A stretch of 30,301 bases of DNA from a virus (taxonomy: Duplodnaviria; Heunggongvirae; Uroviricota; Caudoviricetes): the IMG/VR virus record IMGVR_UViG_2563366891_000011, positions 1 through 30,301 of that record; one strand, given 5' to 3'. This document shows, piece after piece, positions 1 through 22,688 of this stretch. Under the pieces are notes generated by a model, which did no database searches, was not told the DNA's origin, and saw only the letters and a list, made by a program, of their open reading frames with translations. A program made the translations under genes and the position numbers. Every line of letters starts with the position of its first letter. The first letter of the stretch is position 1.

Positions 1-1164
1 TTACGCCTTCTTTATATCCTCCATAATTCCACAGTGGGACATATTTGGGACATTATCACCAAAAATGTCGTCTATTTTCCTTGCATGCTCTGTCAAATGA
101 TTAGGCGCAAGGTGAGCATACCTACGAACCATTTCTATGGACTCCCATCCGCCCATTTCCTGAAGCACAGATAATGGGACGCCTGACTGGATCAGCCAGC
201 TTGCCCAGGTGTGTCTGAGGTCATGGAAACGGAAATCTTCAATTCCTGCACGACGACAAGCTGATAGCCATGATGTCTTGCTGTCGATGCGCATCTTCCT
301 GACCGCAGGCGTTGATGTTCCATCTGCTCGCTTAGCCGCCTTGGTATGTACAAACACCCATTTGTGATGCTTGCCTATTTGATCACGCAACACTTTACAG
401 GCGGTATCGTTCAGCGCCACACCAATGGCGCGGTTTGATTTGCTCTCTTCTGGATTCACCCAGGCAACTCGTCGCTGCATGTCGATTTGTTGCCATTCCA
501 GATTTATGATGTTCGACTTTCTCAGACCAGTTGCCAGCGCAAACTTGACGACAGATTTCAGTGGTTCGGGGCACTCATCAATAAGGCGTTTTGCTTCCTC
601 CTTTTCCAGCCATCTGACTCGCTTGTTTCTGACCGCTGGTATCTTGATGACAGGCGCTTTTTCCAGCCACTTCCAGTCGCGTTCTGCAGCACGGAGAATG
701 GCCTTTATCATGGCAAGATGCTTTGCCTTTGTCTGAGTTGATACTGGCTTTGGTTCATAAACAGGCGGTTCTTTACCTTTCCTGATGGCGGCCTGAACTT
801 TCTGTTTCCATATTTCTTTCGTCTTTCTGTTATGCATTCTGCTTACAGCAGAGTAAATCTTTGCCTCCGAGATATCTTTAAGCCTTATACCCTCAAAATG
901 TTCAAGCCAGAACTCAATCCGGCTTTTATCTGAATCGAGAGATTTTTTATCAGCTTTTTCCTCAAGCCATCTTAGGCAGGCCTCTTCAAAAGTGACATCA
1001 GGTAAATCCCCTAGCTTTTCTACTCGCCAGAGTTCTGCTTTTCGCTTGTCGTGCAACTCCTGAGCTTGCCGCTTGTCCTTTGTGCCAAGAGATTCCTTAA
1101 TTCGTTTCCCGCCCGGGAGCGAATACGAGGCATACCATATTTCATTTCTGCGGAAGAGTGACAT
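1..1164 (-). CDS. int: Tyrosine-type site-specific integrase (phage integrase family; IntS-like)
   Basis: 387 aa ORF with ATG at 1162-1164 preceded by GAGGA RBS; C-terminal [10 protein letters not shown] motif typical of tyrosine recombinases; N-terminus resembles CPS-53 IntS as I recall it. Window starts at the stop codon. Confidence 0.92.
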
Positions 1165-1391
1165 TTTCTTTCCTCTGTTATGCCATCACCCGCGCTCACC
1201 TGGACAGTATGCAGCGGAGACTGAAGCGCCGCAATGCAAGCTTGCCGTGTTGTGAGGTAAGGAGATTTTGGCTTGGTTGGATCTTTACGTGTTGCCTGTA
1301 GGCGGCCTGTTCGTATCCAGTTGGTGGCGGTTGGTCTGGATATCTTAAGAAACTGACAGGCCTCATCGAGTGTGAGGCTGTATGGCTCCAT
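1020..1391 (-). CDS. xis: Excisionase-like DNA-binding protein (Xis/AlpA-type)
   Basis: Internal ATG at 1389-1391 gives [29 protein letters not shown], an Xis-like winged-helix N-terminus; start overlaps the upstream stop (TAATG). The reading frame continues 145 bp into int in another frame, so the true C-terminus is uncertain. Confidence 0.55.
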
Positions 1392-1696
1392 TATTTCACC
1401 TCTTGCTGTGTCATTGTTGAAAAATGGATACCAGCTCGTTGCTGCCAGACGATCCAACCGAGAGTCATATCCCATGCCATGTATTCGTTATCGCCGTTTT
1501 TTACTCTCCGACGATCTACTAAGTCACCGAAACGCTTTTCCATGAATAATTCATAGGCTTCGCGTTCATCTGGCTCTACTTCCAGAGATACGAGTGCGAT
1601 TTCATAAGCACGGCGCTCAATATCGTCTCGAACCTCTAGGCTGCTGATTCGTTCTTTGATTTCTTTAATCAGTTCTTTATTGGTAAATGTGGTCAT
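1391..1696 (-). CDS. Hypothetical protein, 101 aa (YfdT-like by size and position)
   Basis: ORF with ATG at 1694-1696 and GGAG upstream; translationally coupled to neighbours by TAATG overlaps at both ends. Confidence 0.6.
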   Translation of the reverse strand: MTTFTNKELIKEIKERISSLEVRDDIERRAYEIALVSLEVEPDEREAYELFMEKRFGDLVDRRRVKNGDNEYMAWDMTLGWIVWQQRAGIHFSTMTQQEVK

Positions 1697-2058
1697 TATG
1701 CTCCAGCCTCCGGTGCTTTTGGCATTACTGCCCAGTGAGTGATATTGACGTTTTCAAGGTCCCCGACCTGAAATGTCCACTGCCATTCTCCGGTTTCTTT
1801 TTGTCCCCAGGTGTACCAGAGAGAACGCCAGCCAATCAGCCAGCCTTCTCCATTAGCATCAAATAACAGAACACTTTCATTTGCTGGTGGCAGTTCAGCT
1901 GACACTGGTATTATTTTGTTTTCCAGTGCCGCACATTTAGCTTCAAGCGCGTCGAATTTACGTAACAGGTACTCAGCATTTGTTTCATTCACTTTCAGAT
2001 CTCGCGGTACACATTTCCCGCGAAGAAACCCTTCCATTTCGAAAACATTCATGCGCAT
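1696..2058 (-). CDS. Hypothetical protein, 120 aa, Trp-rich C-terminus (DUF551-like; YfdS-like by size and position)
   Basis: ORF with ATG at 2056-2058 and GGAG 8 nt upstream; conserved-looking W-rich C-terminal segment. Confidence 0.6.
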   Translation of the reverse strand: MRMNVFEMEGFLRGKCVPRDLKVNETNAEYLLRKFDALEAKCAALENKIIPVSAELPPANESVLLFDANGEGWLIGWRSLWYTWGQKETGEWQWTFQVGDLENVNITHWAVMPKAPEAGA

Positions 2059-2585
2059 TTGCGTAACTCCGATAAATCGTTAAAACGTTCCATAAACATC
2101 CCGTAGGCATGACCCGGTGCCAGTGGAATCACGTTGAACATCTCTGTTGCCGGGATGCCTTCCAGTACAGGCCAGAAAGAGCCATCATCAAGCCCGAGAT
2201 CGCGGCGTTCGGTTGCCAGCATGATGAGATCGGCATATTTCACGGGTGTACTCATAACTGGGGGTAACCCGTATTTCTCACGGATTACGGCGTCTATTTT
2301 TTCTTCCATCCGTTTATAGTCAGGAAGAAGGCGTTTCAGTGGTGCGGGAATGTCCTGGCAATACGCTTCTGTTGCATCATGCATTAACGCTTCAAAAGCA
2401 AATTCCTGCGGCACCAGCTGGCTGCAAAGAACCGCATGTTGGGCGACGCTGTAGAAGTGCGAAAGATGACCGGCAAAGCGACAGATATTTGAAAGGGAAA
2501 CCGCGATATCGTTAATATCGATGTCGTCTTTATTTATCTTGTCATAATAAAAATGCTTCCCGGAAAAAGTTTTAATAAATGACAT
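2049..2585 (-). CDS. yfdR: HD-domain phosphohydrolase / 5'-deoxynucleotidase (YfdR-like)
   Basis: 178 aa from the internal ATG at 2583-2585 with GGAG RBS; His/Asp-rich HD-type motifs (HAVL..., MHDATEAY); size matches E. coli YfdR as I recall. Confidence 0.78.
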   Translation of the reverse strand: MSFIKTFSGKHFYYDKINKDDIDINDIAVSLSNICRFAGHLSHFYSVAQHAVLCSQLVPQEFAFEALMHDATEAYCQDIPAPLKRLLPDYKRMEEKIDAVIREKYGLPPVMSTPVKYADLIMLATERRDLGLDDGSFWPVLEGIPATEMFNVIPLAPGHAYGMFMERFNDLSELRKCA

Positions 2586-2712
2586 TTTGTTCTCCACGTA
2601 TATGCACTGCACCGCGCTGAATTCTGGTAAAAGGAAGCCCTCACCATCCGGTGATTATTGAGTTAATTACGTTTCCATAAATGCCCCCGCAGGGGCATTT
2701 GCAGTAATGAAA

Positions 2713-3537
2713 TCAGGCGGTGAAAGTACCAATAAAGGTTTCTACTTTGCTGTCTTTGAATTTCTCAACAAGCAGATCACGAAATTCGTTAGCCATTTCT
2801 TCCTGCACCGCTTCCAGCTGAATAATGCGCAGAACCAGTACAGGACGATCGCCAGTGATAATGCTGAGGCGTAATTTAAACGGACGTTCTTTCAGACCTT
2901 CAAACGGAACGCATTTAAATTCAAATGCCACTGGCATAATGTCTTTGGTCTTCGCTTCGACAGACTCCATCAGGGAGCGTTTGCCGCTGAAGTCATTATC
3001 TTCAAAATCAGCGGTCTGGTTTGCTTCAATCGTGATTTTACGGACTGCCGCAGCCGCTTTTGTTGCCTGAATAGCGTCACCATTAGCATCAAAGCCCACA
3101 AGGTAGTCGGCCCAGTCTTCGATCCATTCTGCCAGTGACTTCTGGGAGTTACGCTCGCCGTTAACAGACAACAGAGCAGAGAACGGTGCTGTCTTTTTCA
3201 GTTTGAGAGTGGCAGTGTTATCTGCGTGACCTGGCTCATCAATAGTACCCAGGTTAAGCACACTGACGGCACGCATATTATCGGCATCGATAAAGCAGCG
3301 GGTGCCTTCATCTGCAAGATCTTTAGAATAACGGGTAAAATCATCGATGCTGGCAGTGGAAAGTGCACCACGGAAACGGAAGCGATTTAAATTAAATTTT
3401 TCCAGATCATGAATGCGGAAATTCTCAGGCAATGCCACAGCATCGGCACCAATCTTACTGATAATTTCATTAACACCCTGAGCAGAAATAAGGGCATGGA
3501 TTTGATTAATTGCGGTTGCGTCTAAGTTCTGAGACAT
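2713..3537 (-). CDS. yfdQ: DUF2303-family protein (YfdQ-like)
   Basis: 274 aa ORF, ATG at 3535-3537 with GAGGA RBS; size and sequence character match CPS-53 YfdQ as I recall. Confidence 0.75.
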
Positions 3538-3602
3538 AATAAGTCCTCACTATATAAAGATATTCAGTGATGAGATAAATAATCAGTTTATTACGAACGA
3601 TA

Positions 3603-3965
3603 TTAACGACCTGCTGCGCGGAGTTTTCCGTCAGGTTCACCGGCAAGAGTCAGTAATTGTCCCTGGTCTTCCTGTAGAATAGTCAGGCGACCACCGCGAT
3701 TGACATACATCGGCGTTTCGGTGGTGTCTTCTTCGGAAATTTTCCCGCGGTTAGTTGGGCGAACATATGAGAGTTTGTGTTTGATTTTCACACGGTTCTC
3801 ATCAAACGGTTCGATTTCCAGATTGAGTGAGACCTTCCCTTTGGTTTTCGTGTTCATCACACCGGAAGCGACCTCACTGAGAACTGCGCCGATTTTGGTT
3901 TCAAATACGCCGCCGTCCAGCTCCCCGATAAATGCCTGCACATCAGTACTGCGTTCGCTAGCCAT
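3603..3965 (-). CDS. Hypothetical protein, 120 aa (YfdP-like)
   Basis: Internal ATG at 3963-3965 preceded by GAGGAG; the longer upstream extension in the ORF track lacks an RBS. Confidence 0.65.
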   Translation of the reverse strand: MASERSTDVQAFIGELDGGVFETKIGAVLSEVASGVMNTKTKGKVSLNLEIEPFDENRVKIKHKLSYVRPTNRGKISEEDTTETPMYVNRGGRLTILQEDQGQLLTLAGEPDGKLRAAGR

Positions 3966-4014
3966 TTTGCTGCTCCTCATCATATCGACCCTGCAAGGTC
4001 GGTTGGTTTCTCCA

Positions 4015-4148
4015 CAAAACAGAGAAGAACACCTGCGGTGGCAGCCGCCCGGATGGATTGGGTTATGAGCCCGTCGTCCGGTGATGCTCTTCTCTGTTTT
4101 GCAAAAAAGGACGGTACCAGCCGGAAGCAAGGGTACAAACTGGTACCG
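4015..4148. repeat. Nested inverted repeats: 14-bp IR (4015-4028 / 4088-4101, 59-nt spacer) and 9-bp IR with GGTACC cores (4112-4120 / 4140-4148)
   Basis: Read directly: CAAAACAGAGAAGA vs TCTTCTCTGTTTTG; CGGTACCAG vs CTGGTACCG; a third GGTAC lies between them. Confidence 0.8.
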
Positions 4149-4245
4149 CCAGGACTACACACAGCAATGAAACTATTGCCTGTCTTTTCACCACTTCAGG
4201 CTCGGTGGTATGCTGGAGTTCTCACACAGCCAGCAAGGAAACCTA

Positions 4246-4587
4246 ATGAACCAGTTTTATGTTCACGTTCGTCTGTTTGAAGCAACAGCCGAACAGACCA
4301 AAAAATTTGAAGAATTAATGCTTAACTTTCTGTACCAGAAAACAATCAAAGAGTCTGACGATAGCTGCTGCAGACTGATTCCAGAGGGATATATCCTCAA
4401 AAGCACAATGAACTGCCAACAAATCCTTGATCAAACTTTTTCCATTGCTAACAGTGCTGGTGTTGACGCAAATATATTTGTCTGCAAATTTGAACAAAGC
4501 GTATGCTTACTTCCGTCTGCTTCCTTAGTTGGCAACGATTTTGTTCATCACGATCTTACGCCTAAGCCCATCAAGCTCGATTCTTAA
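4246..4587 (+). CDS. Hypothetical protein, 113 aa, AT-rich moron-like gene transcribed against the leftward early operon
   Basis: ATG at 4246 with AAGGA RBS 6 nt upstream; extended -10-like TGgTATGCT at 4206-4214; low GC relative to flanks. Confidence 0.45.
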   Translation: MNQFYVHVRLFEATAEQTKKFEELMLNFLYQKTIKESDDSCCRLIPEGYILKSTMNCQQILDQTFSIANSAGVDANIFVCKFEQSVCLLPSASLVGNDFVHHDLTPKPIKLDS

Positions 4588-4833
4588 TGCCTTAACCATT
4601 GTGTCGTGATAAACACGGCTCACCCTCTCTCCATTGCATGGCAGTGGGGTGATCGTGTTAGCCATGAAATTCATGAACTTGGTTCGATCAGGGTCTTGCG
4701 CCTCGCAAGTCTTTAATGCCTGTTTTGCTAACAAAATACGGGCCTCAGTGCCTGCATTTGGCTCTATCTGCTGCAAACGTTTAGCGTCTTCCAGCAACAA
4801 TGCGATCACATGCTTCAAATCCTGCTCATTCAT
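4525..4833 (-). CDS. Hypothetical protein, 102 aa, first gene downstream of the putative PL (N-position gene, but not Arg-rich)
   Basis: ATG at 4831-4833 with GGAGAG RBS; its 3' end overlaps the convergent 4246..4587 ORF by 63 bp. Confidence 0.55.
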   Translation of the reverse strand: MNEQDLKHVIALLLEDAKRLQQIEPNAGTEARILLAKQALKTCEAQDPDRTKFMNFMANTITPLPCNGERVSRVYHDTMVKALRIELDGLRRKIVMNKIVAN

Positions 4834-4939
4834 CTATTCTCTCCACTGAAATCATCCGCTAACGAATCATCCTGGACTTCATATGCCCCAGGCGGCTACT
4901 TCGTGGGCGTCCTGCCTGTTCGTTACTGCAACATCTTTA

Positions 4940-4985
4940 AGTTGTAATCTAGTTGTTGTTTTGGTTGTTGTCAACAACTTTATGT
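4940..4985 (-). promoter_or_regulatory. Putative OL/PL: operator motifs including perfect 15-bp palindrome GTTGTTGTCAACAAC (4964-4978) and a leftward promoter (-35 TTGACA at 4969-4974, -10 TAGATT at 4946-4951, minus strand)
   Basis: Palindrome and sigma70-like hexamers with 17-bp spacing read directly; the AAGTTGT/ACAACTT motif recurs on the other side of the repressor gene. Confidence 0.5.
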
Positions 4986-5036
4986 GGTTTTGACGGATGT
5001 GAAATGAGGGCAAGGGTTATCAAAAAAGGAGGTTGT

Positions 5037-5141
5037 ATGGACGATGCGCTTTTAATTACACAAGGGACACTTTCCTTCCGTGATTGGAAACTCTCAAATC
5101 ACGGGAGGAAGATTGAAAAGGCGGGTAATAATGGTAACTAA
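5037..5141 (+). CDS. Candidate small ORF (34 aa) with strong Shine-Dalgarno, in the gap between the operators and the repressor 3' end
   Basis: AGGAGG at 5027-5032, 4 nt before ATG 5037; no homology inferable. Confidence 0.25.
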   Translation: MDDALLITQGTLSFRDWKLSNHGRKIEKAGNNGN

Positions 5142-5168
5142 ATTTCTGAAGGAAGGTTTTTTGATGCA

Positions 5169-5855
5169 TTACCAAGTGCGCGATGACCAGAATACTCTAC
5201 CTATAACGTGAATTCTGGAACGCCTATCTTCGAAGGTGAGTATTTCATCTGGATACTCATCTTTATTGAAACTTCTTAGAATCAGACCACCGTCAGGTAA
5301 ATTGATCAATATTTTAACTCTAAGTAATACGCCATCACGTATGGCATAAAGATCCCCATCACGAATAGGAACCGTTTGGGAAACATCAACAGCAACAAAA
5401 TCTCCATTGTTAAGTACAGGTAGTAAACTATTGCCCCAAATTTTTACGATCTTTGCATTGGAGACACATACACCAGCTTTTCTTAAATCAATCCTTCTTA
5501 GCGGGAACCAGTCTACAGTTGATTCAACTATTTCAGCCAAACATCCATTACCCGCTGATAACTCGACATCTAGGACTGGAATGTTTGCAAAAATGTCAGG
5601 ATCTAATGCTGTACTTTCAGCCTCCTTTACAACAAGGTCTGGGAAAGACGCGTTATCCTCAATGCCCAATTGCAACCACTTTTGAGAAACCCCTAACACT
5701 TTAGCAATCTCTTTAATTTTCCGAGGCTGTTGAGTTTCTCCATTCTCGATTTTCGCTACGGATTGTTGTGAAAGCCCAATTTTTTCAGCTAGTTGCGCCT
5801 GACTCATTCCTGCTTTTTCTCTTTCGCTTTTTAGTCTTTCTGCCAATGTTTTCAC
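5169..5855 (-). CDS. cI: CI-type prophage repressor (N-terminal XRE-type HTH, C-terminal S24 LexA-like peptidase domain)
   Basis: 228 aa; GTG start at 5853-5855 with GAGGGGGA RBS; HTH segment MSQAQLAEKIGLSQQSVAKIENG; C-terminal Ala-Gly, Ser and Lys positions consistent with an autocleaving S24 fold. Confidence 0.88.
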   Translation of the reverse strand: MKTLAERLKSEREKAGMSQAQLAEKIGLSQQSVAKIENGETQQPRKIKEIAKVLGVSQKWLQLGIEDNASFPDLVVKEAESTALDPDIFANIPVLDVELSAGNGCLAEIVESTVDWFPLRRIDLRKAGVCVSNAKIVKIWGNSLLPVLNNGDFVAVDVSQTVPIRDGDLYAIRDGVLLRVKILINLPDGGLILRSFNKDEYPDEILTFEDRRSRIHVIGRVFWSSRTW

Positions 5856-5879
5856 AACATATCCCCCTCGTTTTTATTG

Positions 5880-5970
5880 AGGTTACAACTTTATGTTTTG
5901 GCTTTCCAACATCTAAAAGTTGTGATAAAAGTTGTTGTAGTTGTATAATCGAAGTTATCAACAACTTTAC
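5880..5970 (+). promoter_or_regulatory. Putative OR/PR: repeated AAGTTGT/ACAACTT operator motifs overlapping a rightward promoter (-10 TATAAT at 5944-5949)
   Basis: Same motif family as the OL side (ACAACTTTATGT shared); perfect TATAAT 43 nt upstream of the cro-like ATG. Confidence 0.55.
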
Positions 5971-5992
5971 TACTTACAGATAGGAGAAAGCT

Positions 5993-6241
5993 ATGACACC
6001 TGAGCAATTAGCCTTATCAGAGGCAATCGCTCTGGCTGGTGGTCAATCAGAATTGGCTCGGAAGCTCACAGCCAGCAGTGGTCGTTTAGTAAAGCAACAA
6101 CATGTCTGGAACTGGTTGAACAGAGAAAAGCGTCCCCCTGCAAAGCTTTCGATATTTATTGAAATGACCACTGGCGTATCAAAAGAAAAATTACGTCCAG
6201 ATATTTTTCAAAAGATTAAAGACTTATCAGATGGAAAGTAA
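5993..6241 (+). CDS. cro: Cro-like HTH regulator
   Basis: 82 aa, AGGAGA RBS, divergent from the repressor across the operator cluster; small basic HTH protein. Confidence 0.78.
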   Translation: MTPEQLALSEAIALAGGQSELARKLTASSGRLVKQQHVWNWLNREKRPPAKLSIFIEMTTGVSKEKLRPDIFQKIKDLSDGK

Positions 6242-6263
6242 CCACAGTTTTAAGGAGATAGCC

Positions 6264-6821
6264 GTGGGTAAGCATCACTGGAAAGTAGAAAAACAGCCTG
6301 AGTGGTACGTGAAAGCTGTCAGAAAAACTATCGCAACATTGCCGGGTGGTTACGCTGAAGCAGCTGACTGGCTGGATGTAACAGAGAACGCATTATTTAA
6401 CCGCCTTCGTGCTGATGGCGATCAGATTTTCCCGCTGGGATGGGCAATGATTTTGCAACGTGCTGGTGGAACTCACTTCATTGCTGACGCTGTGGCGCAG
6501 TCTGCAAATGGCGTCTTTGTGTCTCTTCCTGACGTCGAGGATGTGGACAACGCCGATATAAACCAGCGCCTGCTGGAAGTCATCGAACAGATCGGGAGTT
6601 ACTCAAAGCAGATTCGTTCGGCAATCGAAGATGGGGTAGTGGAGCCACACGAGCAGACAGCAATTAATGATGAGTTGTATCTGTCAATTTCGAAGCTCCA
6701 GGAGCATGCAGCACTGGTCTACAAAATCTTTTGCGCTCCAGAAAAGAGTAACGCCCGCGAGTGTGCAGCTCCGGGCGTCGTGGCGTCGATTGCTTCTGGT
6801 TGTGGAGAAACTAACGCATGA
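6264..6821 (+). CDS. Putative CII-like early regulator (family uncertain; alternative ATG start at 6231)
   Basis: GTG at 6264 with AAGGAG 6 nt upstream; sits in the cII slot after cro; family assignment is tentative. Confidence 0.55.
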
Positions 6822-7009
6822 ACAGTTTAACAACACACTACCGTCGCTCGCAACTGATTGCGCTTCCTGTACCGGGTGGAAAAGCGAAGGTGGAATATTG
6901 CTATGCAGTGAATGTACCAGGTGACAGGGAAATTGTAACCCACAGCTTTGCAGAGTGGGCTGTGGGGGATTTCAACCGGCAGAAGGAGACAGTCCTTTGC
7001 GACAAGTAA
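6818..7009 (+). CDS. Hypothetical small protein (63 aa)
   Basis: ATG overlaps the upstream stop (ATGA) at 6818-6821, suggesting translational coupling. Confidence 0.45.
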
Positions 7010-7209
7010 ACCGCTGGTTCAAAGATCACTACGGAGTGCCCGTCAGAGTCATTCGTTGGGAACCGGAAACACAACGGGTTATCTACCTCCGCGAAGGCTA
7101 TGAGCATGAATGCTTCAGTCCGCTCGAACAGTTTCGTCGTAAATTCAGGGAAATAGAGGTCGGTCATGAGCCTGTTAATGACATCCCAGCCCATTGTGAT
7201 AAATCGTGA
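6997..7209 (+). CDS. Hypothetical small protein (70 aa from TTG; 84 aa if GTG at 6955)
   Basis: TTG at 6997 preceded by AAGGAG (6983-6988, 8-nt spacer); the longer GTG start has no RBS. Confidence 0.4.
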
Positions 7210-8158
7210 TCTTGCATGCCGTATTGGTCTGAATGAGGCAATTGTGTTGCAGCAGCTTCATTACTGGCTGAATGAAACGAATTCAGGCACTGAGCATGGC
7301 GGAATTCGCTGGGTTTATAACACGACAGAACAGTGGCTGGAGCAGTTTCCGTTCTGGTCAGAGTCCACTCTGAAACGCACATTTGCAAGCCTGAAATCAC
7401 TTGGGGTTTTGCGTCGCGAGCAACTCAATAAATCGAAGCGTGACATGACCAACTTCTACACGATCAACTATGAAAGTGAGCTTTTAGAAGAGGTCAAAGT
7501 GAACGAATCCATCAGGTCAAAATGCACTTCTCCATTGGGTCAAAGTGACCTGATGGATGGGCGCAAAATGACACGATCCATAGGTTCAAAACGACACGCT
7601 GTCATCGGGTCAAAATGGCCCAATGATCTTACAGAGAATACAACAGAGATTACTACAGAGAATAAAACATCTTCTCGTCCGGACGCTTCGCAACCGGACA
7701 CGCAAACGGCCGAACAGGAGTTTTTAACTCGCCATCCTGATGCGGTTGTATTCAGTCCTAAAAAGCGCCAGTGGGGAACGCAGGATGATTTGACCTGTGC
7801 ACAGTGGCTCTGGAAAAAAATCATCGCCCTGTACGAGCAGGCCGCCGAATGTGACGGCGAAGTGGTTCGTCCCAAAGAACCGAACTGGACAGCCTGGGCA
7901 AACGAAATTCGCCTGATGTGTGTGCAGGATGGTCGTACTCACAAACAAATCTGCGAGATGTACAGCCGCGTCAGCCGCGATCCGTTCTGGTGCCGTAACG
8001 TGCTCAGCCCGTCGAAGCTGCGGGAAAAATGGGATGAGCTTTCCCTGCGCTTATCGCCGTCCGTAAGCACGTACACCGAAAAACGCGAAGACGCGTACTT
8101 CAAAGCCAGTTACGACAACGTGGACTACAGCCAGATCCCGGCAGGATTCAGGGGGTAA
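7166..8158 (+). CDS. Replication initiator protein (lambda O-like role) with the origin iterons inside its coding sequence
   Basis: 330 aa, GAGG RBS; contains a five-iteron cluster and AT-rich repeats (7508-7668), as lambda ori sits inside gene O. Confidence 0.72.
   Translation: MSLLMTSQPIVINRDLACRIGLNEAIVLQQLHYWLNETNSGTEHGGIRWVYNTTEQWLEQFPFWSESTLKRTFASLKSLGVLRREQLNKSKRDMTNFYTINYESELLEEVKVNESIRSKCTSPLGQSDLMDGRKMTRSIGSKRHAVIGSKWPNDLTENTTEITTENKTSSRPDASQPDTQTAEQEFLTRHPDAVVFSPKKRQWGTQDDLTCAQWLWKKIIALYEQAAECDGEVVRPKEPNWTAWANEIRLMCVQDGRTHKQICEMYSRVSRDPFWCRNVLSPSKLREKWDELSLRLSPSVSTYTEKREDAYFKASYDNVDYSQIPAGFRG
7508..7625. repeat. Origin-type iterons: five GGTCAAA(A/G)TG-containing repeats at about 23-bp spacing (starts near 7515, 7538, 7561 degenerate, 7584, 7608)
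   Basis: Read directly; iterons 1 and 2 also form an inverted repeat (CCATCAGGTCA / TGACCTGATGG). Confidence 0.65.
7628..7668. repeat. AT-rich triple repeat ACAGAGAAT(A) next to the iterons (candidate DNA-unwinding element)
   Basis: ACAGAGAATA, ACAGAGATTA, ACAGAGAATA read directly. Confidence 0.45.
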
Positions 8159-8160
8159 TC

Positions 8161-8649
8161 ATGAGTCTTTTGAATGAAGTTCAGAAATTCATTGAAGCCC
8201 ATCCGGGGTGTACTTCCGGAGACATTGCGGATGCTTTTGCAGGCTACTCACGGCAGCGCGTTCTGCAGTCAGCAAGCAAGTTACGTCAGAGTGGGCGTGT
8301 GGCTCACCGTTGTGAAGGGGATACACGCAGACATTTCCCGCGCCTGACTGAGAGAGCGCAGGAGCCGGAACCACAACCAGTTCGTGAAACCAGACCTGCG
8401 CGCAATTTCTATGTCGGCACTAACGATCCACGGGTAATTTTGTGCCTGACCCGCCAGGCTGAAGAACTGGAGTCCAGGGGCTTATACCGTCGTGCTGCAA
8501 CCGTGTGGATGGCGGCATTCCGTGAAAGCCACTCCCAACCAGAACGAAACAATTTTCTGGCGCGTCGTGAGCGGTGTTTACGGAAAAGCAGCAAGCGCGC
8601 TGCATCGGGTGAAGAGTGGTATCTGTCAGGGAATTACGTGGGGGCTTAA
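8161..8649 (+). CDS. Putative transcriptional regulator with PerC-like C-terminal motif
   Basis: 162 aa; motif LESRGLYRRAATVWMAAF resembles the PerC/Pch family signature as I recall; N-terminus looks like a small helical DNA-binding domain. Confidence 0.4.
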   Translation: MSLLNEVQKFIEAHPGCTSGDIADAFAGYSRQRVLQSASKLRQSGRVAHRCEGDTRRHFPRLTERAQEPEPQPVRETRPARNFYVGTNDPRVILCLTRQAEELESRGLYRRAATVWMAAFRESHSQPERNNFLARRERCLRKSSKRAASGEEWYLSGNYVGA

Positions 8650-10996: not shown

Positions 10997-11992
10997 GTGA
11001 CCGTGAGAGCACTACTGACCCCTGAAATTGCCCCGCGTATGGGGATCGTATTGTTCAGACCAGGTTCAGAGCTGATGCCCTTGTTTATGCAGGGGCGTGT
11101 CCTGCTGGAGCCTGAGCCGGAACGTTATTCATCTTTCGCCAGTGGTGCCGTTCCGGCGGCATCACAACCGCTGGCGGATGATCCTGCCGTTCGGGCCGTG
11201 TTCCGCAATGAGGCAGTGATCCGTCGTGCTGGTGGCGTGGAATGTCTTGAAAGCTGGTTACTTCGTGAAAAAGGCTGCCAGTGGCCTCATTCCGACTGGC
11301 ACAGCGAGAACATGACAACAATGCGACACGCTCCGGGCGCAATCCGTCTGTGCTGGCACTGCGATAACCAGCTGCGCGATCAGTTCACGGAACGGCTGGA
11401 ATCAATGGCAACGGATAACTGTGCCCGCTGGGTGTTGTCTGTTGTGCGTCGGGATCTCGGTTTTGATGACAGTCATGTTGTGACAATGCCGGAACTGTGC
11501 TGGTGGCTGATTCGTAATGATCTGGCGGATGCCTTACCGGAAAGTGCAGCCCGTAAGGCACTGAGATTACCGAAGCCTGTTGTGCCGTCTGTTACCCGGG
11601 AAAGTGACCTTGTGCCTTCGGTTCCTGCCACCAGCATCATCCAGGATAAGGCGAAAAAGGTGCTGGCGCTGAAAGTGGATCCGGAGTCGCCGGAGTCTTT
11701 TATGTTACGCCCAAAACGTCACCGCTGGGTTAATGAAAAGTACACGCGCTGGGTTAAGACGCAGCCGTGCGCATGTTGTGGAAAACCTGCTGATGATCCC
11801 CACCACCTGATAGGCCACGGTCAGGGGGGAATGGGTACAAAAGCGCATGACCTTTTTGTGTTGCCTTTGTGCAGAAAGCATCACGACGAGCTGCATGCGG
11901 ATACCGTGGCATTTGAAGAGAAGTATGGCTCCCAGCTGGAGCTGATATTTCGTTTTATCGATCGCGCACTGGCGATTGGTGTGCTGGCCTGA
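10997..11992 (+). CDS. DUF968-family protein with C-terminal HNH-like Cys/His motif (YdfU-like)
   Basis: 331 aa; C-terminal [18 protein letters not shown]...[10 protein letters not shown] is a zinc-finger/HNH-type signature; start codon ambiguous (GTG at 10997 or 11003). Confidence 0.7.
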
Positions 11993-12009
11993 TTTTGTGG
12001 AGAAAGTTA

Positions 12010-12393
12010 ATGCGTGATATTCAGATGGTTCTTGAACGTTGGGGAGCGTGGGCGGCTAATAATCATGAAGATGTGACCTGGTCGTCCATTGCCGCCGGTT
12101 TTAAGGGATTAATTCCTTCAAAAGTAAAATCTCGCCCGCAATGTTGTGACGATGACGCGATGATCATTTGCGGGTGCATGGCCCGTCTGAAAAAGAACAA
12201 CAGCGATTTACACGATTTATTAGTAGATTATTATGTATGTGGTATGACATTCATGTCACTGGCAAGTAAGCATTGCTGCTCGGATGGTTATATCGGGAAA
12301 AGGTTACAGAAGGCTGAGGGCATAATTGAAGGGATGTTAATGGCATTAGATATCCGGTTAGATATGGATATCGTTGCTAATAATTCTAATTGA
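12010..12393 (+). CDS. Q: Late-gene antitermination protein Q (phage 82/21-type short Q)
   Basis: 127 aa from ATG 12010 (GGAG RBS 7 nt upstream); Cys-rich motif ([16 protein letters not shown]); canonical position just upstream of the lysis cassette. Confidence 0.75.
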
Positions 12394-12570: not shown

Positions 12571-12713
12571 GTGCACAGAAAACCCCCAGCTAGGCTGGGG
12601 GTTCCGGAAAGCTTTCAGCTTTAAGCCAGTTATTAAAACCCCTTTTGATTTGTTAAAACACCTTGCGGTCTGGCAACTGCAAGTGTCAAACAAGAAATCA
12701 AAAGGGGGTCCCA

Positions 12714-13172
12714 ATGGGGAACGAAAAGAGCTTAGCGCACACCCGATGGAACTGTAAATATCACATAGTTTTTGCGCCAAAATACCGAAGACAGGTGTTC
12801 TACAGAGAGAAGCGTAGAGCAATAGGCAGTATTTTGAGAAAGCTGTGTGAGTGGAAAAGTGTACGGATTCTGGAAGCTGAATGCTGTGCAGATCATATCC
12901 ATATGCTTGTGGAGATCCCGCCCAAAATGAGCGTATCCGGCTTTATGGGATATCTGAAAGGGAAAAGCAGTCTGATGCTTTACGAGCAGTTTGGTGATTT
13001 GAAATTCAAATACAGGAACAGGGAGTTCTGGTGCAGAGGGTACTACGTCGATACGGTGGGTAAGAACACGGCGAAGATACAGGATTACATAAAGCACCAG
13101 CTTGAAGAGGATAAAATGGGAGAGCAGTTATCGATTCCCTATCCGGGCAGCCCGTTTACGGGCCGTAAGTAA
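12714..13172 (+). CDS. tnpA: IS200 transposase TnpA (Y1 HUH transposase)
   Basis: 152 aa; MGNEKSLAHTRWNCKYHIVFAPKYRRQVF and HIHMLVEIPPK (HUH) motifs typical of IS200 TnpA. Confidence 0.92.
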   Translation: MGNEKSLAHTRWNCKYHIVFAPKYRRQVFYREKRRAIGSILRKLCEWKSVRILEAECCADHIHMLVEIPPKMSVSGFMGYLKGKSSLMLYEQFGDLKFKYRNREFWCRGYYVDTVGKNTAKIQDYIKHQLEEDKMGEQLSIPYPGSPFTGRK

Positions 13173-13247
13173 CGAAGTTGGATGCAAATGTCAGATCGTG
13201 TGCGCCTGTTAGGGCGCGGCTGGTAAGAGAGCCTTATAGGCGCATTT

Positions 13248-13285
13248 GAAAAACCTCCGGCTATGCCGGAGGATATTTATTTCGT
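13248..13285 (-). terminator. GC-rich hairpin with minus-strand T-tract: porin terminator and/or IS200 right-end subterminal hairpin
   Basis: CCTCCGGC-TAT-GCCGGAGG (13254-13272) followed on the minus strand by TTTTTCAAAT; similar in form to the IS200 left-end hairpin. Confidence 0.45.
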
Positions 13286-13293
13286 AAGTCAGA

Positions 13294-14376
13294 TTAGAAC
13301 TGATAAACCAGACCTACAGCGACGATGTCGTCGGTATCAATACCAGCTGTTTTGGTAAACTTACTATCGTCAATTAAGTTGATTTTGTAATCAACAAAAG
13401 TGGACATGTTTTTATTAAAGTAGTAAGTAGCACCGACATCGACATACTTGACTAAGTCTCGGTCACCATGAACACCAAGGTCTTTACCTTTTGACTGAAG
13501 GTAAGCAACAGATGGACGCAGACCGAAGTCAAACTGATATTGTGCTACTGCTTCAAAGTTTTGTGCTTTGTTTGCAATATGGTTATTACCAAAAACGGTC
13601 ATATTCTGAGTTTCAGAATATGTGGTAGCCAGATAGATATTGTTCGCATCATATTTCAGGCCTGCAGCCCATACTTCCGCATTTTTGCCGGAGGCATTGA
13701 ATTTGCTCTTACCATAGGCGACCTGACCGTCAGTGCGATCTGATTTAGCATAGGTTGCACCCACGCCGAATCCTTCATACTCATAAGTAGTGGAGAAACC
13801 GAAACCATCACCATTGGCTTCAGTTACGTCAGTGCGGTCATTTTTACCCTGATACTGAGCAGCAAAGTTCAGGCCATCGACCAGACCAAAGAAGTCGTTG
13901 TTACGATAAGTTGCAACACCAGTAGTGCGACCAGTCATGAACACATCTGTTTGGGTCCAGGTATCACCACCGAATTCTGGCAGGACGTCAGTCCACGCAC
14001 CGATGTCGTATGCTACACCGTAGTTACGGCCGTAATCGATTGAGCCGTAATCACCAAATTTCAGGCCTGCAAATGCAAGACGGGTTTTGTCTTTGGAAGA
14101 ACCTTGAGATTCAGCACGGTTGCCTTTGAATTCATATTCCCACTGACCGAAACCAGTCAGTTGATCGTTGATTTGGGTTTCACCTTTGAAGCCAAGACGG
14201 GCATAAGTAGTATCACCATCATCTGCATCATTAGAGGAGAAGTAGTGCTTGGCATTAACTTTCCCGTATAGATCCAGCTTGTTACTGTCTTTATTATAAA
14301 TTTCAGCTGCCTGAGCAGACATCGCCATCAGTACTGATGCAGCTACAGCAGAAATTGCCACTGTTAATTTTTTCAT
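13294..14376 (-). CDS. nmpC: OmpC/OmpF-family outer-membrane porin, prophage-encoded (NmpC/Lc-like)
   Basis: 360 aa; signal peptide [30 protein letters not shown]-terminal VYQF, general-porin sequence character; sits antisense between Q and the lysis genes as nmpC does in DLP12. Confidence 0.9.

Positions 14377-18987: not shown

Positions 18988-22668
<3,681 letters not shown>

Positions 22669-22688
<20 letters not shown>

Follow-up and report, generated by a model that had tools for sequence, protein, structure and literature searches.

A yfdP–yfdT module with a conserved leader in the early-left region of a lambda-like prophage

RESULTS

The yfdP–yfdT block and its counterpart in K-12

We describe a block of five leftward genes in a lambda-like prophage, represented by a stretch of 30,301 nucleotides (nt) from IMG/VR record IMGVR_UViG_2563366891_000011. 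This whole stretch is referred to as the window, and all coordinates are window positions. The ORF (open reading frame) list places five consecutive minus-strand ORFs of 120, 274, 178, 120 and 101 codons at 1391–3965, and these correspond to yfdP, yfdQ, yfdR, yfdS and yfdT of Escherichia coli K-12 prophage CPS-53 (Table 1). When complete E. coli genomes were searched by megablast, K-12 MG1655 matched positions 1391–3984 with 97.8% DNA identity; the matching K-12 region is annotated as yfdP, yfdQ, yfdR, ‘phage protein’ (yfdS) and yfdT. Pairwise BLASTP against K-12 gave 118/120 identical residues for YfdP, 272/274 for YfdQ, 177/178 for YfdR, 119/120 for YfdS and 98/101 for YfdT. The sole change in YfdR, V23D, falls at a variable position. 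The five-gene block is the CPS-53 yfdP–yfdT module, the gene match being far beyond chance.

An earlier sequence-only reading of the window had matched the five leftward genes to K-12 YfdP–YfdT by size and order, and sizes, order and orientation indeed agree exactly; the alignment that it proposed returned high identity for all five proteins (97–99%). The module end that it gave, 4130, is only the most distant TTG at which the yfdP frame could begin. The frame in fact starts at 3965 and yields a 120-amino-acid (aa) protein; this start is backed by an alignment of 34 YfdP homologues over the alternative starts at 3983 and 4130 (TTG).

CPS-53 shares more with the window than the five genes, their order and their orientation. 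Beyond the immunity region, K-12 yfdN is 98% identical to positions 8161–8649, and the C-terminal 165 residues of the yfdO pseudogene are 96% identical to the 3' half of the window O gene. From these matches, CPS-53 is an early region of the window's kind from which ∼3.7 kb (3985–7660) was deleted. The deleted part held the module leader, all of the immunity region and the 5' half of the O gene. At the other end, K-12 homology reaches position 1329, so that a xis remnant of ∼62 nt (the first part of the gene) is left, and torI/intS stand in place of the xis/int genes of the window.

Table 1. Features of the yfdP–yfdT module and its immediate surroundings, in leftward order
Feature	Position	Strand	Basis or remark
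Candidate early-left promoter TTGACA-17-TAGATT	4946..4974	-	Consensus scan, position only; left of cI-type repressor gene
Conserved non-coding leader	3966..4166	-	Fold z-score, conservation across related loci
yfdP, 120 aa	3603..3965	-	Newer Pfam family PF27127 ‘YfdP’
yfdQ, 274 aa	2713..3537	-	DUF2303 (PF10065)
GC-rich hairpin AAAUGCCCC-UGCG-GGGGCAUUU in yfdQ–yfdR gap	2680..2699	-	Sequence and fold
yfdR, 178 aa from ATG	2049..2585	-	HD-domain phosphohydrolase (predicted); RefSeq 5'-deoxynucleotidase; DnaA-binding protein of the module (K-12 orthologue)
yfdS, 120 aa	1696..2058	-	C-terminal DUF551; swappable accessory gene
yfdT, 101 aa	1391..1696	-	PHROG 660; without Pfam match
xis excisionase, 123 aa, left boundary of module	1020..1391	-	Pfam HTH_17; PHROG 2907, E 1e–45
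Tyrosine integrase, 387 aa, last gene of leftward block	1..1164	-	ORF; 100% identical to PhiR49_1 integrase

Conserved leader and operon layout

The module is headed by a 200-nt leader with a significantly stable predicted fold (z = –4.55; 0 of 200 shuffles were equally stable). Three elements follow each other in the leftward direction: a terminator-like hairpin (4110–4150) with a U-run behind it (4103–4108), a long hairpin (4009–4107) with a stem of ∼25 bp, and a small hairpin (3986–4001). A GAGGAG Shine-Dalgarno sequence stands 7 nt ahead of the yfdP ATG. In 81 related loci the upstream end of the conserved block lies at 4166 (52 loci) or at 4151 (22 loci), and hence the leader belongs to the conserved block, whereas in K-12 CPS-53 it has been lost and homology ends at 3984. 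Among 44 distinct variants the hairpins persist, and changes are few, one-sided and pair-compatible. Since a covariation test found no double compensatory changes in the stems among these variants, an RNA structure is plausible but not proven. Overall, conservation of the leader is suggestive, though not proof, of a function at the RNA level, and the inverted repeat could also act at the DNA level. An Rfam scan of the whole window returned nothing in the module or leader (the sole match was an RNA associated with an IS200 element, STnc490), and no tRNAs were found in the window.

A consensus scan identified a sole leftward sigma-70-like site between cI and the module, the candidate early-left promoter of Table 1. 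Between this site and a leftward 102-aa ORF lies a 67-bp island (4858–4925) that is 96–100% conserved in many relatives with differing immunity surroundings. As a structured RNA (nut or put site) the island was not significant (z = –0.2); it could be a regulatory site.

Within the module, 65 AT-rich nt lie between yfdP and yfdQ. The gap between yfdQ and yfdR is longer (127 nt) and holds a GC-rich hairpin, which might possibly serve as a partial terminator or RNA stabiliser, although over its full length the gap shows no significant structure (z = –1.75). Further to the left the genes overlap: yfdR and yfdS by 10 nt, and both the yfdS stop with the yfdT start and the yfdT stop with the xis start in the sequence TAATG.

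YfdR and the other module proteins

In an alignment of 25 YfdR homologues, residues R36, F37, H50, H69, D70, D78 and D119 show no variation, and the conservation of E73 is 90% or higher. The catalytic residues expected of the HD protein proposed in the sequence-only reading are present (H50, H69–D70, E73, D78 and D119), and H50, H69, D70 and D119 align with the metal-binding residues of Atu1052 and YfbR. Atu1052 (2gz4) is the sole significant solved relative of YfdR (E 3.7e–14 with a single sequence, 2.2e–17 with a profile). In the profile comparison the HDAxE....D.P.P.K motif lines up with YfbR (2paq) as well, marginally (E 0.12, a 41-residue stretch). Here E73 and D78 of YfdR correspond to E72 and D77 of YfbR, and the entry for the E72A mutant (2par) scores lower over the same stretch. 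Among phage protein families YfdR falls into PHROG 318 (E 5e–110), annotated as deoxyribonucleoside 5'-monophosphate (dNMP) phosphatase. Its scores lie marginally below the Pfam gathering thresholds for YfbR-like (24.3 versus 25.9 bits) and HD_3 (17.0 versus 22.5 bits). The NCBIfam equivalog model for YfbR, NF003009, gave 19.9 bits against a cut-off of 122, and YfdR is therefore not a YfbR orthologue. On the evidence of the metal residues and the Atu1052 match, YfdR is assigned the HD-domain phosphohydrolase fold.

The match of YfdQ to DUF2303 is strong and nearly full-length (309.7 bits versus a gathering score of 26.6; profile positions 2–269 of 269), and the protein has invariant polar motifs, e.g. 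PGHADN. For YfdP, one long helix and three long antiparallel strands are predicted. No solved structural relatives were found for either YfdP or YfdQ. Residues 50–117 of YfdS match DUF551 (PF04448) at a borderline score (22.1 bits versus a cut-off of 22), and no known domain was found in YfdT. PADLOC defence models gave 0 matches for the five module proteins and two neighbouring ORFs. In a few database proteins (P0011, P0073 and P0160), YfdP (PF27127) and DUF2303 domains occur in one chain; these are probably frameshift or read-through fusions of adjacent genes.

Distribution and mosaicism

Fifty phage records contain the 2.7-kb block with an identity of at least 95%. Among them are PhiR49_1 and PhiR29 (PhiR49_1 at 100%) as well as Kati, SfV (orf28–32), SfIV, 2H10 and 15 Stx2c-converting phages (∼97%), and mEp460 and the cdtI phage also have it. 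In SfV, SfIV, mEp460, the cdtI phage, the Stx2c phages and PhiR49_1 the whole block stands in the early-left region at 97–100% DNA identity. Hence the novelty that the sequence-only reading had implied for a module of this type in a non-cryptic phage does not hold, the more so as SfV homologues were already pointed out in the K-12 work (PMC4776307). More than half of the complete E. coli genomes (3045 of 5426) also have the block, at ∼97% identity, and in 1950 of these at least 80% of its length is present. YfdR-like proteins reach much further, being found in 333 phage records with hosts of many phyla, virulent and jumbo phages included; YfdR of Salmonella phage ST64B is 68% identical.

In the 81 related loci the left end of the conserved block varies. 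It falls at the yfdR/yfdS junction (2066/2077), at the yfdS/yfdT junction (1705/1708), inside yfdT (1572), or further left at 1329, 70 and 1, and mosaic breakpoints were also found within yfdS. By these end points, yfdP, yfdQ and yfdR together with the leader make up a stable core, and yfdS and yfdT are swappable. Judged by these breakpoints, the swapping of yfdS and yfdT is typical lambdoid mosaicism.

More distant relatives keep parts of the core. Providencia prophages retain the order yfdP–yfdQ–yfdR between the repressor and xis/int genes, with a YfdR that is 58% identical and extended by a 60-aa tail, and in these relatives the O-like gene is likewise without a helicase loader. A set of Salmonella prophages (L087–L089; ∼4476–7239 in L087) keeps yfdP and yfdQ without yfdR, directly after a gene for a Sak4-like (AAA_24) single-strand annealing protein. 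This layout hints that the YfdP–YfdQ pair can associate with recombination functions. A PHROG 34697 protein is also encoded ahead of the pair in these prophages. The 101-aa gene after yfdQ in the Salmonella relatives was considered as a YfdT homologue, and comparison showed no homology.

Prophage context and integrity

To the right of the leader lie a ymfI-family gene (4210–4587, plus strand), the leftward 102-aa ORF (4525–4833), and the genes for an S24-peptidase cI-type repressor (5169–5855), a YdaS-type Cro (5993–6241) and a cII-like protein (6231–6821). An O-like replication initiator gene (7166–8158, 330 aa) is followed by yfdN (PerC family), a methyltransferase gene and rusA. The yfdN gene comes directly after O, and a P/DnaC/DnaB-like helicase-loader gene is absent there. 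Beyond rusA come the Q antiterminator gene (11995–12393), the porin and lysis genes and those for terminase, portal, head and tail; the tape-measure gene, at the window end, is the last of them. Being located between the immunity region and xis–int, the module occupies the place of the lambda early-left operon that is held there by ‘exo-bet-gam/ea’.

Escherichia phage PhiR49_1 (PV340568.1, 45,270 bp) is collinear with the window. Identity is 100% over 1–4166 and 99.4–99.8% over most remaining parts (87% of 25 kb at 99.5%), and most window genes are 100% identical to PhiR49_1 proteins. The two differ in the immunity region (4167–6262), which in the window looks e14-type, and in the N-terminal domain of O (7171–7661); in addition, PhiR49_1 is without a ∼700-bp insertion and without an amber codon in the portal gene.

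The insertion is an IS200 element (12571–13272) between Q and the 3' end of the porin gene, with a Y1 transposase ORF (12663–13172) and the STnc490 RNA (12581–12704; Rfam). The amber codon is an in-frame TAG (21879–21881, codon 265) in the lambda-B-like portal gene (21087–22688, plus strand), at which PhiR49_1 has CAG (Gln). The portal protein is otherwise 99% identical to that of PhiR49_1, and the remaining head and tail genes are intact as far as the window reaches. With this mutation the prophage probably cannot assemble particles in a non-suppressor host. ymfM (6818–7009) is cut by a stop to 63 aa, compared with 112 aa in PhiR49_1. The description of the prophage as an apparently complete phage thus stands for the presence of immunity, replication, lysis, head and tail genes, but not in view of the portal amber, the IS200 element and the ymfM truncation; moreover, the window ends inside the tape-measure gene, and tail tip and fibres are beyond view.

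Three further genes deserve mention. The ydfU-like gene (11823–11992) has a frameshifted C-terminus relative to PhiR49_1. The large terminase has 641 aa in the window and is lambda-like; PhiR49_1 seems to have a frameshift in its 655-aa reading. Between Q and the lysis genes, both the window and PhiR49_1 have an opposite-strand moron, a full-length OmpC/OmpD-type porin gene (13294–14376 in the window, minus strand; Porin_1, E 2e–151).

DISCUSSION

A possible role in host replication

The K-12 genes have been connected to replication initiation by Noguchi and Katayama, who isolated yfdQRST as a multicopy suppressor of hda-185 over-initiation and found that suppression requires yfdQ, yfdR, and yfdS or yfdT (PMC4776307). 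In multicopy, yfdQ and yfdR with either yfdS or yfdT inhibit initiation at oriC in K-12, and multicopy supply had this effect in wild-type, dnaAcos, seqA, DARS and diaA backgrounds (PMC4776307). Purified YfdR binds domain I of DnaA in a Phe46-dependent manner, at the surface used by DiaA and DnaB, and in vitro, an oversupply of YfdQRST in the extracts inhibits replication from oriC (PMC4776307). Having pointed to the SfV homologues, the authors proposed an ancestral phage role analogous to that of lambda P (PMC4776307). Interference with host replication, one of the early functions suggested in the sequence-only reading, is thus experimentally supported for the K-12 orthologues (PMC4776307), but the route shown is that of YfdR and DnaA domain I, with YfdQ and YfdS or YfdT, and not the depletion of dNMPs. 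From the near-identity of the proteins (YfdR differs by V23D alone) we infer that replication inhibition would carry over to those of the window.

Overall, we suggest, with reasonable though limited confidence, that the window has the CPS-53 block intact and in its natural setting, as an accessory part of the early-left operon in lambda-like temperate phages, and that the module damps host initiation early in lytic growth. After infection or induction of the prophage, leftward transcription of the module would start at the promoter beside the repressor gene. The transcript would pass through the structured leader, beginning with the terminator-like hairpin, so that expression would be delayed-early and require terminator read-through; the long leader stem may be an RNase III site, and the gene overlaps suggest that yfdR, yfdS, yfdT and xis are translationally coupled. 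YfdR, as an HD-fold protein with weak 5'-deoxynucleotidase activity, would bind DnaA domain I and, together with YfdQ and YfdS or YfdT, inhibit oriC. Damped host initiation may in turn free DnaB/DnaC for a phage O-type replicon that has no helicase loader of its own. YfdP and YfdQ are conserved as a pair, with YfdS and YfdT as interchangeable accessory proteins.

Several observations weigh against this proposal. The replication phenotype was seen on multicopy expression alone, while deletion of yfdQRST was without effect, the authors themselves allowed for an overexpression artefact, and the competition of YfdR with DiaA and DnaB was merely moderate (PMC4776307). The occurrence of YfdR-like HD proteins with the same catalytic residues in the 333 records, from very different hosts, argues that enzyme activity rather than DnaA binding is the conserved function. 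The roles given to the promoter and leader are purely consensus and fold predictions. Finally, leftward transcription from the candidate promoter would have to pass antisense through the rightward ymfI-like gene before it reached the module.

Alternative explanations

Given strictly conserved catalytic residues and family members in phages whose hosts are unrelated, depletion of dNMPs stays the main rival. YfdR would then work chiefly as a phosphohydrolase, with dNMPs or some other nucleotide as substrate, and would alter the precursor pools at an early stage of infection, as Dmp does for phage T5; its DnaA binding would be incidental. The conservation of HD metal and catalytic residues in the 25 homologues fits such an enzyme, as do the label of PHROG 318 and the RefSeq name, and in phages of many phyla a DnaA-specific role is unlikely. 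A documented phage dNMPase, Dmp of T5, improves virulence and is toxic if expressed by itself (bioRxiv 10.64898/2026.04.02.716235). However, YfdR is reported to bind nucleotides with far lower affinity than YfbR does (literature summary in PMC4776307). YfdR also remains under the YfbR cut-offs of both Pfam and NCBIfam, and an enzymatic role leaves the genetic need for yfdQ and for yfdS or yfdT unexplained. T5 breaks down the DNA of its host and excretes nucleosides. Lambda-like phages do neither, and thus the rationale of T5 is not transferable. On balance we regard a nucleotide-pool function as rather unlikely.

At the position of the module, lambda-like phages usually have counter-defence or recombination genes, such as exo-bet-gam, abc or anti-RecBCD functions. 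One could expect the YfdP–YfdQ pair, with or without YfdR, to neutralise a host defence or to serve DNA recombination or repair, particularly as no recognisable recombinase or Gam is encoded in the early-left operon of this phage. The Salmonella prophages, with the pair directly after the Sak4-like annealing protein, point the same way, as do the DUF2303 gene near RecT and YqaJ in Burkholderia phage JC1 (PMC9144972), the mild sensitivity of yfdQ deletion mutants to methyl methanesulfonate (MMS) and H2O2 (PMC4776307), and the invariant polar motifs of YfdQ. Even so, we consider this function improbable. Very improbable, in our estimate, is that the block is kept not for the phage but for help to the host under oxidative or acid stress. 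Its presence in 3045 of the complete E. coli genomes, many times in decayed prophages such as CPS-53, would agree with a benefit to the lysogen, and so would the reported H2O2 sensitivity of yfdQ and yfdS deletions (PMC4776307, citing Wang et al. 2010). But the genes lie in a repressed early-left operon behind a terminator-like leader and are coupled to xis–int, they are kept in plaque-forming phages, and the frequent swaps of yfdS and yfdT look like phage mosaicism and not like host selection.

Damping of host initiation, the reading we prefer, has a stronger form that we put forward as a speculation with little chance of being right. YfdP–YfdQ–YfdR might be a cassette dedicated to hijacking the host replisome, which would do the job of the helicase loader that O-only lambda-like replicons lack. 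With help from YfdQ, YfdR would occupy the DnaB/DiaA-binding face of DnaA domain I, close oriC in this way and make DnaB–DnaC available to the phage origin, and the leader, with its terminator and then its 25-bp stem, would time expression. If this were true, YfdP and YfdQ would found a new fold family, made up of replication-takeover factors.

Additions to earlier knowledge

The literature and routine annotation already cover the genes themselves, their occurrence in active phages (e.g. SfV), the HD fold that YfdR has and the inhibition of replication. Our additions are modest: a conserved structured leader as part of the module, a yfdP–yfdQ–yfdR core with swappable yfdS and yfdT, the lack of fold relatives for YfdP and YfdQ, and a reconstruction of the losses of CPS-53. 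For the latter, the window provides a reference (leader, immunity region, 5' half of O, and xis). YfdP and YfdQ emerge as a very common conserved phage pair without known fold relatives, and the question of what YfdR does in the phage, as an enzyme or as a DnaA binder, becomes sharper.

Comparison with known systems

Among HD-domain proteins, YfbR (PDB 2PAQ) and Atu1052 (PDB 2GZ4) share with YfdR the H...HD...D ligands and the HDAxE....D.P.P.K motif. Atu1052 is the closer solved relative of the two and is itself uncharacterised; in contrast to both, YfdR additionally binds DnaA (PMC4776307). T5 Dmp is likewise a phage-encoded early (pre-early) dNMP phosphatase, the likeness to YfdR being one of label, through the PHROG family. 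On the replication side, lambda P and Bacillus subtilis SirA are, like YfdR, phage or developmental proteins that bind DnaA and block initiation at the origin, oriC, and SirA and YfdR depend on the same phenylalanine of domain I (PMC4776307). Neither lambda P nor SirA is related to YfdR in sequence. Lambda P binds domain III of DnaA and is itself a helicase loader, whereas YfdR acts in vivo together with YfdQ plus YfdS or YfdT, which it needs.

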